A program made the position numbers and the translations under genes. Positions 2,403 through 59,758 of a DNA stretch of 64,000 nucleotides are shown here, piece after piece. Every line of letters starts with the position of its first letter. The stretch's first letter is position 1. Below the pieces are notes generated by a model that worked only from the letters and a program-made list of their open reading frames with translations, did not search any database and had not been told where the DNA came from. Source of the DNA: Terriglobia bacterium (GTDB taxonomy: Bacteria > Acidobacteriota > Terriglobia > 20CM-2-55-15); NCBI GenBank assembly GCA_965206125.1, contig CBDBIN010000045.1:772531-836530 (forward strand), in the 5' to 3' direction.

Positions 2403-2901
2403 ATGAGAATCCCCCAACATCTACTCTTTGTTCTGTTGCTGGCGAATTACTTTGCGAGCGGTTGCAGCGCCACCGAAAGCGCCCCCGACGCCCAGACCGC
2501 GTCGGCCCTGACCGAAGACGGTCCGCTGCTTGTTTCGGCCGACGTCGGCTTCGCCCCGCATGCCATGATCCGGCCCGATGGCGTTCCCGAAGGCTTCAAT
2601 ATCGATCTGGCGGAAGAGTTTGCGCGCCGTCTGGGCCGGCCTGGCTATGAGATCGTCGACCAGGAGTGGTCGGGCATGTTTGCAGGGCTGAACGCGAACC
2701 GCTTCGAATTCATCATCGCTCCGACGACGATGACATACGAGCGTTCCCAGGAGGTACTGTTCGTCGAGGGTTATCTCGACACGGACTACACGTTTCTGAT
2801 CCAGAATGACGCCCCTGAAATAATGACGCTCGAGAACATTCGCCGGAAAGCCATCGCGGTCAACAACGGATCCGCATACGATCTCTGGGCTATGGTGCCA
2901 C
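2403..2901 (+). pseudogene. polar amino-acid ABC transporter substrate-binding lipoprotein, 5' fragment, interrupted by the IS30 element
   Basis: Lipobox LLLANYFASGC followed by family-3 SBP sequence up to ...AIAVNNGSAYDLWAM. The reading frame then runs into the left inverted repeat of the IS. Confidence 0.7.
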
Positions 2902-4113
2902 CTCAACCGATCGATGCAACACAAGCGTTGAATCGTTCTGCTGGAGTTTCAAACTCCAGCGTCTTACGCGGCCGTTCATTGAGCTCACGTGCCACCTTGT
3001 TCAGGTGCGCCTGCGAGTGCACCGATAAGTCGGTTCTCTTTGGGAAGTACTGTCGGAGCAGGCCATTCGTGTTTTCATTGGAACCACGTTGCCATGGACT
3101 CTGCGGATCGCAGAAGTAGACGTCGATGTCGGTCGCCAGGGTAAACCGCCGATGATCTCCCATTTCCTTGCCGCGATCCCAGGTCAGCGATTTATACAGC
3201 TCGGTCGGTAGTTTCTTCGCGTGCTTGATCAGTGCAGGCACGACGGTCTTGGTCTGTTTATCCGACACTTTCACCAACATCACGTAACGGGTATGGCGTT
3301 CGACCAGGGTCGCAATGTAGGTGTTGTTCGATCCCACTATCAGATCTCCCTCCCAGTGACCGGGAACGGCACGATCTTCGACCTCGGCCGGGCGCTCACG
3401 AATCGATACGATATCGGCGAGATCCCCTTTCCCGTGACCTTTGTGACTGGAATGTCGGGATCGACGAATCGTTCGTCTCGACCTCAGATGTCTAAGTAGT
3501 TCTTTCTTAAACACCCCGCGCGCCTGCACGAATAGGCTGCGATAGATCGTCTCGTGGGACACGTGATACGACTCATCCTCTGGATAGGATCGCTTCAGCC
3601 AGCCGGCGATCTGTTCGGGCGACCAATTCCGCCGGAGCTTCCTCGCCACCATTCGCCGTAACCGCGGATGGCGACCCAACTGACATCGCTTCGGGCGACG
3701 GGCCCGGTTCCAAGCCTGTTCATCGGCGACAGACGCCCGGTAGTCATCATAGCCCCCATTGCGCTGGATCTCCCGGCTCACCGTCGAGGGTGAACGCCCC
3801 AGACACTCTGCGATCGAACGCAACGACTGCTCGGCCGCGATCCCGCGGGAGATCTCCTCACGTTCCGACAGGCTCAAAGCCAACCTCGACCGTCGTCGTG
3901 GTCGAGGACGAATGCCTCCGGTATGCGCCAGCTGACAATATACAGACGATGACAGCTTGCCAAACGCTCGCCCGATCTCATGCAGAGATTCCCCTCGCCG
4001 CCACCGATCCCATACCTCCGCCTTCTCCGCCGCCGTGAAACCGAATCGCATCCCTTTCCGCATACACTCCACCTCTTCCTTTTAAGATAAAGTGTTGCGT
4101 CGATCCATTGAGA
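2902..4113. mobile_element. IS30-family insertion sequence (~1.2 kb)
   Basis: A single transposase ORF is flanked by imperfect ~21-bp terminal inverted repeats. The left repeat is ctcaaccgatcgatgcaacac at 2902-2922. The right repeat is gtgttgcgtcgatccattgag at 4093-4113, whose reverse complement is ctcaatggatcgacgcaacac. The element sits inside the SBP gene. Confidence 0.75.
2903..4072 (-). CDS. IS30 family transposase
   Basis: 389 aa with an N-terminal HTH region (EIGRAFGKLSSSVYCQL..., SIAECLGRSPSTVSREIQRNG). The C-terminal DDE catalytic region has the typical IS30 signature ...GHWEGDLIVG...TLVERHTRYV...TWDRGKEM...YFCDPQSPWQRGSNENTNGLLRQYFPK. Confidence 0.85.
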   Translation of the reverse strand: MECMRKGMRFGFTAAEKAEVWDRWRRGESLHEIGRAFGKLSSSVYCQLAHTGGIRPRPRRRSRLALSLSEREEISRGIAAEQSLRSIAECLGRSPSTVSREIQRNGGYDDYRASVADEQAWNRARRPKRCQLGRHPRLRRMVARKLRRNWSPEQIAGWLKRSYPEDESYHVSHETIYRSLFVQARGVFKKELLRHLRSRRTIRRSRHSSHKGHGKGDLADIVSIRERPAEVEDRAVPGHWEGDLIVGSNNTYIATLVERHTRYVMLVKVSDKQTKTVVPALIKHAKKLPTELYKSLTWDRGKEMGDHRRFTLATDIDVYFCDPQSPWQRGSNENTNGLLRQYFPKRTDLSVHSQAHLNKVARELNERPRKTLEFETPAERFNACVASIG

Positions 4114-4515
4114 TCAGCAGAAAACCGGGACAAGTACGATCTCGAAGTCCAGCGCTACGGCAAGAACGCCGACGCTGTCCAGGCGGTCGTGACGGGCCGC
4201 GCGTTCGCCAACCTTGCGGGCGAGACGGTTGCCAAATGGGCTGCAAAGCAGAGTCCTCTGGTCAAGACGACCTACACCATCAAGAGCGGCAGCAAATTCT
4301 CTGCTGCTTTCCGTCACGAAGATGTCGAATACCGCAACCGGGTCGAGGATGCCCTCGAATGCATGAAGATGGACGGAACGATCGCACGCCTGCACGAAAA
4401 ATGGTTTGGGGACCTGCCGGTGGAAGGCTCGGCGGCGATTACGGTTCTGGAAGGCTACGGTGAGCCGGGAATGGAGGGCTACGACCCGACGCCACATCCC
4501 GACGGGTGCAGCTGA
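4114..4515 (+). pseudogene. 3' fragment of the IS30-disrupted substrate-binding protein gene
   Basis: The ORF 4108-4515 encodes ...KYDLEVQRYGKNADAVQAVVTGRAFANLAGETV...IARLHEKWFG, the C-terminal lobe of a family-3 solute-binding protein. It is in a different frame from the 5' fragment, consistent with an insertion of about 1.2 kb plus a 2-3-bp target site duplication. Confidence 0.65.
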
Positions 4516-5275: not shown

Positions 5276-5938
5276 ATGATCGAAAGCTTCTTCAACCTCG
5301 AGGTAATGGCCCGCGTCTACCCGTCGATCGTCCGCGGCTTGTGGATCACGCTGGCGCTCTCGGCGCTGATCATTCCTTGCGGAACGGCCCTCGGACTCCT
5401 GCTGGCAACCATTCGAACTCTCCAAGTTCGCGCGCTGAACTTCTTCATCATCCTGTTCATCGACGCGTTTCGCGCCATACCGCCGCTGGTCATCCTCATC
5501 GTCGTCTACTTTGCGCTCCCCTTTGTCGGGTTCCAGTTGTCCGGGTTTGTTGCGGCCTGGCTTAGCTTAAGCCTGGTACTGGGAGCGTTCTCGGAAGAAG
5601 TCTTCTGGGGCAGCATCGTCGCTGTGGACCGAGGCCAGTGGGAAGCGGCCCGTTCGACCGGGCTCGGGTTTACCGAAACCTTGCGACATGTCGTCCTGCC
5701 CCAGGCGATTCGATTGGCGCTGCCGCCGTTGACGAACCGCGCAATCGCAATCGGCAAGAGCACGGCGCTGGCCTCGGTCATCGCGGTGCCGGAAATACTC
5801 AACCAGGCGTTGAGCGCGCAAGCCCAGGCAGCCAACCCGTCTCCGCTCACGCTCGCGGCCGTCGCCTACCTGGCGATCTTCGTCCCCCTTGTCGTTGTAA
5901 GTCGATGGGTCGTTGCGCGGTTTCGGTGGAGACACTAG
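5276..5938 (+). CDS. polar amino-acid ABC transporter permease (His/Glu/Gln/Arg/opine family)
   Basis: 220 aa multi-TM protein with an EAA-like loop (EAARSTGLGFTETLRHVVLPQAIRLALPPL). Confidence 0.85.
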   Translation: MIESFFNLEVMARVYPSIVRGLWITLALSALIIPCGTALGLLLATIRTLQVRALNFFIILFIDAFRAIPPLVILIVVYFALPFVGFQLSGFVAAWLSLSLVLGAFSEEVFWGSIVAVDRGQWEAARSTGLGFTETLRHVVLPQAIRLALPPLTNRAIAIGKSTALASVIAVPEILNQALSAQAQAANPSPLTLAAVAYLAIFVPLVVVSRWVVARFRWRH

Positions 5939-5948
5939 CCAGGAAACC

Positions 5949-6623
5949 ATGCAGCAACTGATCGACACTTTTCTGAACCCCGACATCATGAGGACAAGTG
6001 TTCCCTATCTTGTTCGAGGTTTTTGGATGACCCTCGGGCTGTGCGCGCTGGTGATCCCGCTCGGCATCGTGGGCGGCTTGATCCTGGCGAGCCTCCACAA
6101 CCTTGGCCACCGATGGCTGAACGCGATCCTGATCGTCTATGTCGATCTGTTTCGGGCGTTCCCTCCGCTCGTGCTGCTGATCTTTGTCTATTACGGACTG
6201 CCCTCGATGGGCGTCGAACTGTCGCCTCTTTCTGCCGTGGTCCTCGCCTTCACGCTGAACACGTCGAGCTATTACGGCGAGATCCTTCGCGCCGGGATCG
6301 AAAGCGTCCCGCTCGGCCAGTGGGAGGCGGCGCGATCGACAGGCCTGAGCCGTTTCCAGACGATGTTGCACGTCGTCGTTCCGCAGGCCGTCCGCACCGT
6401 GTTGCCCGATCTGGTCGGCAACACGCTGGAGGTGGTCAAGTTGACATCCCTGGCCAGCGTCGTGGCGCTGCCCGAGCTGCTCCGCATGGCGCGCATCGCT
6501 CAAGGCATTACCTTCAACCCGACGCCGCTCGTCCTGGCCGCCATCGTCTACTTCCTGTTACTCTGGCCCTTCGTCCGCCTGCTGAGCCGGATGGAAAGGC
6601 GGATGCTGGTACCGACGACTTGA
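5949..6623 (+). CDS. polar amino-acid ABC transporter permease (second subunit)
   Basis: Paralogous to the previous gene, with EAARSTGLSRFQTMLHVVVPQAVRTVLPDL. The start is placed at the Met of MQQLIDTF, which follows an AGGA-like ribosome binding site. The ORF-track start at 5913 would overlap the upstream gene. Confidence 0.8.
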   Translation: MQQLIDTFLNPDIMRTSVPYLVRGFWMTLGLCALVIPLGIVGGLILASLHNLGHRWLNAILIVYVDLFRAFPPLVLLIFVYYGLPSMGVELSPLSAVVLAFTLNTSSYYGEILRAGIESVPLGQWEAARSTGLSRFQTMLHVVVPQAVRTVLPDLVGNTLEVVKLTSLASVVALPELLRMARIAQGITFNPTPLVLAAIVYFLLLWPFVRLLSRMERRMLVPTT

Positions 6624-6632
6624 ACAACACTA

Positions 6633-7285
6633 TGTGGAGTCCAATTCTCGTCATCAACCCCAATTCGACTGAATCCGTCACGGAAGGAATGGACAGGGCG
6701 GTGGAGCCCCTGCGGCTGGAGGGAGGTCCCCCGATCGAGTGCCTGACGCTCGCCCAGGGCCCACCGGGGATCGAATCCCAGGAGCAGGCGGACGCGGTCG
6801 TGGGGCCGGTCTGCGACTTGATCCGCTCCCGGAACTACGAAGCCTCCGCGTTCGTCATCGCCTGTTACAGCGATCCCGGGCTTTCGGAGGCTCGAGGCGC
6901 ATCATCGAAGCCCTTTCTGGGAATCGCGGAGTCCGCGATGTTGACGGCGATGACCCGTGGCGATCGGTTCGGCGTGATCTCGATCCTCGAAGGTTCCATC
7001 CCGCGACATGAATGCTATGTCCGGCGGTTGGGCCTCGCGTCTCGTTCGGCCGGGGATCGAGCCATAGGTGTGGGCGTGACGGAACTCTCGGACGAAGGCC
7101 GGGCGCTGGGCCGGATGATATCGATCGGAACCGCGTTGCGTGATCAAGACGGCGCCGACGTCCTGATCCTGGGCTGCGCGGGCATGGCTCCCTATCGACG
7201 AACCCTCGAAGAAACTCTCGGCCTTCCTGTGGTCGAACCGACGCATGCCGCGGTAACCCTCGCGATCGGAGCGGTTCTCGGGTAG
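6633..7285 (+). CDS. Asp/Glu/hydantoin racemase family protein (hydantoin racemase-like)
   Basis: About 217 aa from MWSPILVINPNS. The two catalytic Cys motifs VIACYSDPG and LILGCAGM typical of hydantoin racemases are present. The ORF-track entry 6023-7285 has a spurious N-terminal extension that overlaps the permease gene. Confidence 0.75.
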
Positions 7286-7297
7286 GCAGGGCAGCAA

Positions 7298-7560
7298 CCC
7301 GTGGCAGAAGTCTGATGGCCCGCGTTACGGCGACGTCGCGCCAGATGCTAGGCGCCGTGCCGACAGCGATGCCGGTACATCGTTGAGGTGCGGCAACAAC
7401 GCAGATGGTGTGACGTCGCCGTAACCCTTTGGGCGCATGGGGGTTGCGGGGCGGATACTTCGTTGCTCGTCGTCATGATGAAGCAGCATCACTTCCTCCT
7501 CGCGCCTCGTCTTCGCCCCGCAAGACCCATGCGCGCGGGCCATCAGACTTCTGCCACGGG
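7298..7560. repeat. 263-bp compound palindromic element: 27-bp perfect terminal inverted repeats enclosing two internal hairpins
   Basis: cccgtggcagaagtctgatggcccgcg at 7298-7324 is exactly reverse-complementary to 7534-7560. An internal inverted repeat pairs ttacggcgacgtc at 7325-7337 with gacgtcgccgtaa at 7412-7424. A second pairs catgggggttgcggggcg at 7436-7453 with cgccccgcaagacccatg at 7514-7531. The element lies in the intergenic region between convergent genes. Confidence 0.7.
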
Positions 7561-7563
7561 CTG

Positions 7564-8499
7564 CTAGTCCGGAAGAACGACCCCCGTCTGGGACGTAATC
7601 AATCCGTAGTGTTCGATGCGGCGGTGTTTGGCGAAGTTGAAGATGTTCTCCTTGATGTCGGCTCCGAGCTCCAGATCGCAGTTGTAGGTGACAACCTCGT
7701 CGTCCTCACTGAGCGCCTGGGCTACGATCTCGCCGGTCGGGGCGACGATCGCCGTGCCACCGATCAGCCCGTGCCCGTCTTCGGATCCCGCCTTGGCCGT
7801 CGCCACGACCCAGGCTCCGTTCTGGTATGCCCCCGCCTGCAACGACAACATGTGATGGAACATCCTTTGATGTACAGGCTGGTGGTGGTGGATGTTCGTG
7901 TCGGGCGTGTTGTACCCGAGGACGACCATCTCCACGCCCTGGAGTCCCATGACCCGGAAGGTCTCGGGCCACCGCCGATCGTTGCAGATGCACATGCCGA
8001 TCACGCCGTCGAACGCCCGCCAGACCCGAAAGCCCAGGTTGCCGATGTCAAAGTATCGCTTCTCCAGGTGCTGGAACGGCTTCCCCTCGAGGTGTTCCGC
8101 GTGCCCCGGCAGATGAATCTTCCGGTATTTTCCGATGATGCCGCCGTCCTTGCCGACCAGGATCGCGGTGTTGAAGTGCCGGACTTGTCCGTCTTCCTCG
8201 GCCAGCTCGGCGTAGCCCAGATGGAAACCGATGCCCAAGCGCCGGGCCTCGTCGAACAGCAGCGCGGCGGCGGGGTTAGGCATCTCCCGCTCAAAAAAGG
8301 CATCGATGTCCTCCTGCTTTTCGATGAAATAACGCGGGAAGAACGTAGTCAGCGCGAGCTCCGGAAAGACCACGAGCTCGCAGCCCGAGGCATGGGCCTC
8401 GCCCAGCATCTTGACGAGCCGTCGAACCACCACTTCCCTCGAATCCGCGCGCTGGATCGGCCCCATCTGGGCGGCCGCTACTTTCAGAAACCTGGACAT
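7564..8499 (-). CDS. N-carbamoyl-D-amino-acid hydrolase (D-carbamoylase, nitrilase superfamily)
   Basis: 311 aa. The motifs FPELALTTFFPR, GYAEL, KIHLPGH, FQHLEKRYF and the catalytic Cys in MCICNDRRWPE all match D-carbamoylases. Confidence 0.85.
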   Translation of the reverse strand: MSRFLKVAAAQMGPIQRADSREVVVRRLVKMLGEAHASGCELVVFPELALTTFFPRYFIEKQEDIDAFFEREMPNPAAALLFDEARRLGIGFHLGYAELAEEDGQVRHFNTAILVGKDGGIIGKYRKIHLPGHAEHLEGKPFQHLEKRYFDIGNLGFRVWRAFDGVIGMCICNDRRWPETFRVMGLQGVEMVVLGYNTPDTNIHHHQPVHQRMFHHMLSLQAGAYQNGAWVVATAKAGSEDGHGLIGGTAIVAPTGEIVAQALSEDDEVVTYNCDLELGADIKENIFNFAKHRRIEHYGLITSQTGVVLPD

Positions 8500-39230: not shown

Positions 39231-39370
39231 CGGAATCTACGCTCAGTCAGATACACCGGTCCGGGCACACGCATGCACAAATCTCCCGTCATGGCGGTAA
39301 CGCCGCTTCGATTCTAGAACAACTCCGCACGGAGTTGAAGCAATCTTGCTGAATTTTAAAGCTTTTGAAA

Positions 39371-39493
39371 GGGGACAGGCTCCCCTGTCCCCTCTTGGAC
39401 CATACAGCTATTGCAGCTTGCGAAAACCGGCTTAAGAAATCAGTAACTGAAATTAGTGTAAGAGCGAGGTAGGGACAGGGGAGCCTGTCCCCT
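39371..39493. repeat. MITE-like unit: two inverted copies of a 22-bp self-complementary hairpin flanking a ~77-bp AT-rich core
   Basis: GGGGACAGG-ctcc-CCTGTCCCC lies at 39371-39392. GGGACAGG-ggag-CCTGTCCC lies at 39472-39491. The loops ctcc and ggag are reverse complements, so the two hairpins are inverted copies of one another. The element sits between the methyltransferase stop and the module-3 promoter region. Confidence 0.6.
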
Positions 39494-59660: not shown

Positions 59661-59758
59661 TTACCGTGACATTTTCATTGGACAGCAACAACAAACAGTC
59701 ACGTGTGTAGTTGTTCAATGATTCTGTCACCCATTAACTGTTCAGTGAAAATGTCACG
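59641..59758. repeat. cluster of four ~19-21-bp related motifs: two direct copies plus two inverted copies
   Basis: gtgacatttttattgaaca lies at 59641-59659 and cgtgacattttcattggacag at 59665-59685. Inverted copies tgttcaatgattctgtcac lie at 59713-59730 and ctgttcagtgaaaatgtcacg at 59738-59758. A CACGTG palindrome sits between them. Confidence 0.6.

Follow-up and report, generated by a model that had tools for sequence, protein, structure and literature searches.

The 271-bp element at positions 7294 to 7564 of the window, the window being the whole 64-kb stretch of DNA that was analyzed, belongs, as judged from its dispersed copies and empty sites, to a MITE family of Terriglobia (Acidobacteriota) that had not been described before. 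It is very probably a MITE that is moved in trans by a TA-targeting transposase encoded elsewhere. For this role, the IS1182-family DDE transposase of the same genomes would be the likeliest candidate. Apart from an autonomous partner with matching ends, the structural features by which bacterial MITEs are recognized are found together in this system: small size, the lack of a coding function, terminal inverted repeats, a TA duplication relative to an empty site, and dispersed copies. The family would add a recently active MITE to the Acidobacteriota—a major soil phylum whose mobile elements are poorly described.

Limits and position of the element

The element is bounded by long terminal inverted repeats. 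The exact 27-mer CCCGTGGCAGAAGTCTGATGGCCCGCG occurs once per strand of the window, at 7298–7324 (+) and at 7534–7560 (−), and has no match in dinucleotide-preserving shuffles of the window; the perfect 27-bp inverted termini described in the sequence-only reading of this DNA are thus confirmed by pattern search. If a single mismatch is allowed, the repeat reaches 32 nt (7293–7324 versus 7534–7565, 97% complementarity). The element proper (7294–7564, +) is 271 bp long, has G as its first and C as its last base, and represents a main-family copy. Its limits are defined by the homology to other copies, which ends exactly there, and by the orthologous locus L012, which is without exactly that stretch. 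The left terminal inverted repeat (7294–7324, +) reads GCAACCCGTGGCAGAAGTCTGATGGCCCGCG, and the right one covers 7534–7564 (+). Terminal repeats of 31 to 32 nt are present in every full copy of the element; their sequence is kept in the main family and is different, yet self-complementary, in two subfamilies.

The 278-bp gap between two convergent genes is nearly filled by the element; its location between convergent genes had been read from the sequence. On the left lies the Asp/Glu/hydantoin racemase gene (6641–7285, +), which closes an ABC-transporter operon and has its stop codon 8 nt ahead of the element. On the right lies a carbon–nitrogen hydrolase gene (7564–8499, −), annotated elsewhere as N-carbamoyl-D-amino-acid hydrolase, whose stop codon is the insertion target. 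The right arm of the element overlaps this stop codon: the right copy of the TA target (7565–7566) forms, together with element base 7564, the TAG of the hydrolase gene (7566 to 7564, −). The left target copy is reduced to an A at 7293, the T being missing, as judged by comparison of the window with the empty site of L012. Searches of the 64-kb window with patterns, core motifs, BLAST, and nhmmer revealed no further copy.

Fold and covariation

Inside the outer stem formed by the terminal repeats, the element features two long hairpins and a small hairpin at their junction. Hairpin 1 (7324–7425, +) has arms of 25 nt at 7324–7348 and 7401–7425 that are 84% complementary, with the first 14 bp perfect and 52 nt between the arms; its stem continues inward past 7348/7401. 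Hairpin 2 (7433–7534, +) has arms of 26 nt at 7433–7458 and 7509–7534 that are 85% complementary, with 50 nt between them, and contains a conserved 2×2 internal loop. Both inner hairpins of the sequence-only reading are real, whereas their description there (stems of 13 bp and about 18 bp) was slightly off. The junction mini-hairpin (7426–7432, +) reads CC-TTT-GG in the window and CC-TTC-GG in other copies and lies inside the most conserved block, CGCCGYAACCCTYYGGGC. The apical region of hairpin 2 (7459–7508, +) is conserved as well and carries TTCCTCCTC at 7493–7501. On the − strand, this apex reads GAGGAGGAA, followed 5 nt on by an ATG at 7489–7487.

Folding of both strands, as had been proposed, yields a minimum free energy of −198 kcal/mol (z = −15.0) for the + strand and of −182 kcal/mol (z = −11.1) for the − strand, and 0 of 200 shuffles fold as well as the element. 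On both strands, the three-way junction is far more stable than shuffled sequence. For the covariation test, the structure of the window copy was mapped onto 15 copies belonging to three subfamilies. Standard pairs are formed in 92.8% of the cells of this alignment. Pairs changed on both sides are observed 44 times, compared with 15.8 ± 2.8 in column shuffles and 4 to 12 in slid controls, in which the partners were moved by 1 to 3 columns; the compensatory result of a 10-copy alignment is similar. The outer stem, both hairpins, and the small CC-TTY-GG junction hairpin are recovered independently by RNAalifold. A compensatory swap between copies can be appreciated in hairpin 2, where GCGGGG/CCCCGC stands versus CGGAGG/CCTCCG. 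The tandem G.A/A.G mismatch of hairpin 1 and the 2×2 internal loop of hairpin 2, on the other hand, are conserved while the adjacent pairs covary. From one subfamily to another, only about half of the columns stay invariant, with no difference between stems and loops, and yet 85 to 88% of the window's pairs are retained. Terminal repeats and interior show about equal divergence between subfamilies.

The three-helix fold is clearly maintained by compensatory changes. The divergence of the terminal repeats, which about equals that of the interior, and the compensated inner helices count against a purely transposase-driven model, which predicts neither. The inner three-way junction may help the ends to pair during transposition, as paired DNA ends or in an intermediate that is single-stranded; it may also serve as a stable structure in the 3′ UTRs of both convergent transcripts. 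[quoted passage not shown]

Inner open reading frame

The element contains a 72-aa ORF (7325–7543, −), of which a 54-aa version starts at 7489. On the − strand, GGAGG is positioned 3 to 5 nt ahead of the ATG in 15 of 15 aligned copies, and all three subfamily types keep the 54-aa frame open. Four copies, L003, L005a, L010, and L018, have a broken frame. In the main family, the variants comprise 8 synonymous and 14 non-synonymous changes, the chance expectation being 28% synonymous, and their distribution over the codon positions is flat (6/8/8). No Pfam family matches the 72-aa ORF, and similarity in the protein database is confined to nine short ORFs, without a longer protein among them. A real gene and the start of a parent transposase were both considered for this frame and rejected, since there are only the nine short look-alikes and no coding signature. 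The inner ORF is most likely a by-product and not a gene; the suspicion that it is spurious, voiced before any search, holds on account of the missing Pfam match, the broken frames, and the absent coding signature. Elements of this kind give rise to spurious small ORF calls and to assembly breaks in metagenome-assembled genomes.

Copies of the family

A 20-mer from the terminal repeat was scanned against one genome per GTDB species. It occurs at nine loci in the Terriglobia MAG CAXWPM01 and at one locus in the MAG CBDAPB01. Full copies have a length of approximately 272 bp, are 80 to 98.5% identical to the copy of the window, and reside in unrelated flanks, as judged by BLAST and nhmmer; truncated or rearranged remnants accompany them in the same MAG loci. 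Extra copies were reached via database ORFs that resemble the 72-aa ORF of the element. The family occupies at least 14 distinct dispersed sites in several Terriglobia assemblies and, in addition, features two diverged subfamilies. In the diverged copy L002:5730–6003, the sequence of the outer stem is completely different and still forms a near-perfect inverted repeat. Copies occur in either orientation, and their settings differ: some follow stop codons, others lie between divergent genes or within an operon.

BLAST of the element against a plasmid collection gave no copy, and the 5-kb surroundings of the element show only distant hydantoinase similarity to this collection, in Variovorax and Comamonas. 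A conserved core 22-mer has no match in the viral contigs scanned and identifies a single partial copy, L011, in metagenome contigs. Solo terminal repeats in L006 and L009 were considered as ends of a full-length IS and rejected: they are decayed fragments with no transposase nearby.

Empty sites and mobility

The same operon was reached in five other assemblies via close orthologues of the flanking hydrolase. In L012, the flanks of which are 98 to 99% identical to the window, the empty site reads GGGTAG-GCAGGG-CTAGTCC, with the two stop codons 6 bp apart (GCAGGG). The empty GGGC-TA-GTCC of L012 compares with the filled GGGC-A-[271 bp]-TA-GTCC of the window. The insertion target is the TA of the hydrolase TAG stop, within CTAG, and the first base of the element restores the stop. 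At the junction in the window, one T of the TA duplication is absent, which leaves A on the left and TA on the right. For ISY100, a member of the IS630 family, 3 of 39 in vitro insertions were reported to have a full TA at one end and a lone A at the opposite end (PMC2170065). The insertion appears to have left both flanking proteins intact and to have replaced the 6-bp spacer by a stable structure of approximately 270 nt, into which both convergent transcripts would read.

The second site with such a difference lies 1.4 kb from the element in the same operon. In the window, this target is unoccupied: it is the TA (5936–5937) of the TAG stop of a permease gene (5276–5938), located within CTAG, and reads GACAC-TA-GCCAGG. 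The same permease stop reads GACAT-TA-(GGCAGCCTGTGG...CCACAGGCTGC)-TA-GCCAGG in L012, L013, L014, L016, and L017. The inserted sequence is a diverged family member that features a perfect TA...TA duplication and resides in CTAG on a stop codon, between two permease genes (L012:6290–6563; L013, L016, and L017:6368–6641). At the site that is filled by the element in the window, L013–L017 (96% identical) carry an 88-bp rearranged remnant, whereas L012 is cleanly empty. The remnant (L013, L014, L016, and L017:4943–5022) consists of the left terminal repeat and a portion of hairpin 1 in which the interior is flipped. To reconcile this remnant with the clean L012, one has to assume that the site was hit twice independently, or that it was occupied in the ancestor and emptied in the lineage of L012 by precise loss or allele replacement. 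Presence and absence at two sites between genomes that are 98 to 99% identical argue that the element is, or was recently, mobile.

The dispersed copies with unrelated flanks, the two empty sites, and the TA duplication bear out the MITE among the candidates named in the sequence-only reading, and the test proposed there for copies and empty sites found both.

Further mobile elements are present at this locus. The window contains an IS30-family IS at 2893–4119 (transposase 2903–4072, −; NCBIfam NF033563, 297 bits), which is not in the orthologous loci L012, L013, and L014; within the same ABC-transporter operon, it disrupts the gene for the substrate-binding protein. A DDE_Tnp_1_4 transposase is found in place of the upstream portion of the transporter operon at L016:8015–8774 and L017:7970–8936—a third independent mobile-element event at the locus.

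Target site and stop codons

Directly inside the TA, G and C are invariant at the 14 distinct sites. The outer bases vary: C, T, or A is found to the left and G, A, or C to the right, and all 13 fully informative sites have C before the TA or G after it. Most copies are flanked by TA on both sides. This fits a target that would consist of TA, preferably in CTAG, and be duplicated (2 bp) on insertion. A duplication of 3 bp or of 4 bp (CTAG) was considered as well and is ruled out by the constant inner G and C and the variable outer bases.

The stop codon of a gene is hit at 6 of approximately 15 sites, including that of the window. In L002 and L004, the far end is TA+A, as would follow from a TAA stop before the insertion. 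Counted crudely, the window has 18 CTAG sites outside coding sequence, and 5 of them are stop codons. The enrichment at stop codons can be accounted for by target preference together with selection against gene disruption, so that no special homing mechanism is needed. Because the element starts with G, insertion into a TAA or TAG stop rebuilds TAG and keeps the protein unchanged, and this would explain why many surviving copies are located on stop codons. An element that targets TA or CTAG and has G as its first base can land in stop codons harmlessly, and the stop codons of a G+C-rich genome become safe harbours for it.

Mobilizing transposase

In the proposed mechanism, a transposase encoded elsewhere in the genome would bind the approximately 30-bp terminal inverted repeats, excise the 271-bp element, and insert it at TA, preferably in CTAG, with the TA being duplicated upon insertion. 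Mobilization in trans by an IS1182-family enzyme is favored because ISs of this family occur in the same genomes, insert in CTAG, and have similar termini. Two IS1182-family ISs were identified in these genomes (NCBIfam NF033551, 361 and 291 bits), and they are even inserted side by side with the element. The IS at L021:886–2422 lies in the CTAG formed by a MITE end and is absent from the otherwise identical L018–L020. The IS of L002, at about 6003–7703, likewise lies in CTAG at a MITE end; the transposase of this copy has an in-frame stop. Two homologues of the L021 transposase are widespread and have CTAG at either end in 20 of 20 places (L026–L045), and the IS1182-family ends GAGTCTGCGCGGCAGAAG are conserved between transposases that are only 64% identical.

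The termini of the IS1182 family and of the element resemble each other, as seen for GGAGCCTGTCGGCAATAAGAA against GCAGCCCGTGGCAGAAG. The former read TA followed by GGAG(C/T)CTG...GGCA..AAG; this is similar, not identical, to the TA followed by G(G)CAGCC(C/T)GTGGCAGAAG of the element. When the MITE termini GCAGCCCGTGGCAGAAGTCTG and GGCAGCCTGTGGCAGAA are aligned to GGAGCCTGTCGGCAATAAGAAATCT, which is the left end of the L002 IS, hardly any shuffle does better (p ~0.0003). An exact autonomous partner was sought. The scan of GTDB representatives with the 20-mer gave only MITE copies or remnants and no autonomous element with the same terminal repeats, and the search via homologues of the IS1182 transposase led to two widespread IS species with the ends given above, neither identical to those of the MITE. 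IS1182-family ISs encode a 441-aa DDE transposase, whereas the element encodes nothing, and no interior sequence is shared between them.

The two also differ in their targets: the IS1182 relatives strictly use CTAG, whereas the MITE, with its variable outer bases, tolerates CTAA, TTAG, and similar sites. This looser target suggests that the enzyme may be a different one, for example of the IS630 type; a literature search on the IS1182 target site gave nothing useful. Mobilization by an IS630/Tc1–mariner transposase, by which the element would still be a MITE, is unlikely but to be reckoned with. IS630-family transposition duplicates TA, and the 2-bp TA duplication, the relaxed NTAN target, and the CTAG preference make up the signature of IS630 and ISY100 (PMC2170065). 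A TA target with a duplication of 2 bp and a preference for CTAG link the element to this family and to Stowaway-type MITEs; the preference of IS630 for CTAG is taken from the title of a reference cited in that paper. The TA/A junction in the window matches the published ISY100 outcome (PMC2170065), and the RUP of pneumococcus is a MITE of the IS630/Tc1–mariner type (PMC2229807). Against this stand the termini of the element, which resemble the ends of co-resident IS1182-family ISs. In addition, IS1182 elements likewise use CTAG, no IS630-type transposase is seen in any locus examined, and no terminal repeat matching that type was found in these sequences.

The ends of the element create new CTAG sites, which are used by IS1182-family elements and other MITEs and lead to nested insertions. 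At L022:2423–2972, two family members, one of them truncated, are nested or abutting in opposite orientation, which is another sign of element ends attracting more insertions. A second MITE family of 114 bp with terminal repeats GGAGCCTGTCGGGAAT is found at L014:6584–6699, L004:358–473, and L025:2697–2812 and is a deletion derivative of the L002 IS1182-family element. One copy of it is nested in the larger MITE (L014), and another abuts a MITE end.

RNA, terminator, and recombination readings

The sequence-only reading had also proposed a three-way-junction ncRNA. Of this, the architecture is real and compensated, whereas the assignment as ncRNA lacks a match in Rfam and a strand bias of wobble pairs and meets copies in both orientations. 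In its fuller form, this reading makes the element primarily a structured ncRNA module that happens to be mobile and acts on flanking or distant transcripts—possibly by mRNA stabilization, as a target of RNase III, or by pairing with Shine–Dalgarno sequences. Its acting parts would be the three-way junction, the junction hairpin, the tandem G.A, and the exposed CCUCC loop, which is GGAGG-AUG on the other strand. We consider it doubtful. It draws on the strong covariation of all three helices across three subfamilies, on the non-canonical motifs and the junction block CGCCGYAACCCTYYGGGC that are kept while the stems change, on the conservation of CCTCC and its partner ATG in 15 of 15 aligned copies, and on the large share of pairs that survives in subfamilies with about half of their columns invariant. 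However, DNA-level selection or copying from one arm to the other can maintain complementary terminal repeats in a transposon, G.U mismatches occur alongside A.C mismatches and favor neither strand, and copies lie in both orientations and in the varied settings listed above. No promoter-like site was found, and the covariance scan that had been proposed gave no match even at E = 10: the best matches in Rfam 15 are chance similarities to microRNA models, with 19 to 22 bits versus thresholds of 91 to 268. A mobile, structure-constrained module of RNA or single-stranded DNA with a host-level function wherever it is inserted would be rather improbable. If it were true, the 3′ ends of convergent transcripts might, for example, be protected or processed, or ribosome-binding sites titrated, and it would explain a fold that is kept across subfamilies with stems almost wholly rewritten.

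Very little credence can be given to the in-place evolution, between the convergent genes, of a long hairpin that serves as a bidirectional terminator or for RNA stability, although its position and its very stable fold would suit this role and the ancestral spacer of just 6 bp is without a terminator. The same sequence resides at at least 14 unrelated sites and is absent from the closest relative, L012; this refutes an origin in place and also the single-copy long terminator hairpin that had been named as a fallback. No T-run is present on either side, no terminator-like site is called in 7286–7572, and five assemblies have a family member inside an operon, with a permease gene on either side of it. 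Obligatory termination by the element is unlikely, given the missing U-tract, the missing terminator call, and this family member inside an operon; the element may instead stabilize 3′ ends, or its 32-bp duplex may be cleaved. Compensatory changes are known to preserve the hairpins of REPINs, and the hairpin-rich architecture of the element recalls them. A REP or REPIN moved by a RAYT (IS200/IS605-like), or the site of a site-specific recombinase such as an integron attC, is nevertheless extremely improbable: the element measures 271 bp versus about 100 bp, it has a TA duplication and terminal, not subterminal, repeats, and its copies are dispersed in both orientations and do not form arrays. 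Neither a RAYT nor an integrase gene is seen near any copy. The recombination site suggested at the outset is not supported.

Comparison with known systems

As a MITE, the element is most readily compared with the Correia/NEMIS elements of Neisseria and the RUP of Streptococcus pneumoniae, which are likewise short and non-coding and carry long terminal inverted repeats (PMC2229807). Shared with these systems are also the TA at both ends as target duplication, the presence/absence polymorphism between strains, the dispersed and mostly intergenic location, and a transcript that folds end-to-end into a long hairpin (PMC2229807). The element differs from them by its host, an acidobacterium, by the absence of sequence similarity, and by its length and composition: it is 271 bp long and G+C-rich, whereas Correia and RUP are 107 to 155 bp long and A+T-rich. 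Two additional features set the element apart: the two further long inner hairpins, which are compensated, and the terminal G, which rebuilds TAG stops. Stowaway-type elements, too, work in a similar way without sharing sequence with the element, whose IS1182-like ends are a further difference from Correia, RUP, and Stowaway.

ERIC/IRU and REPIN are imperfect palindromes that reside in intergenic transcribed regions and whose hairpins are kept by compensatory substitutions. They do not show the combination of terminal repeats and a defined TA duplication that marks the element. REPINs, moreover, depend on RAYT genes, none of which is seen near copies of the element.

Other features of the window

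ARAGORN finds no tRNA genes in the window. At 39370–39493, an A+T-rich spacer contains a G+C-rich palindrome of 24 nt twice, as AGGGGACAGGCTCCCCTGTCCCCT and AGGGACAGGGGAGCCTGTCCCCT, in inverted orientation and approximately 77 bp apart. An A+T-rich stretch at 59665–59758 carries a 21-nt inverted repeat, CGTGACATTTTCATTGGACAG / CTGTTCAGTGAAAATGTCACG, with 90% complementarity.
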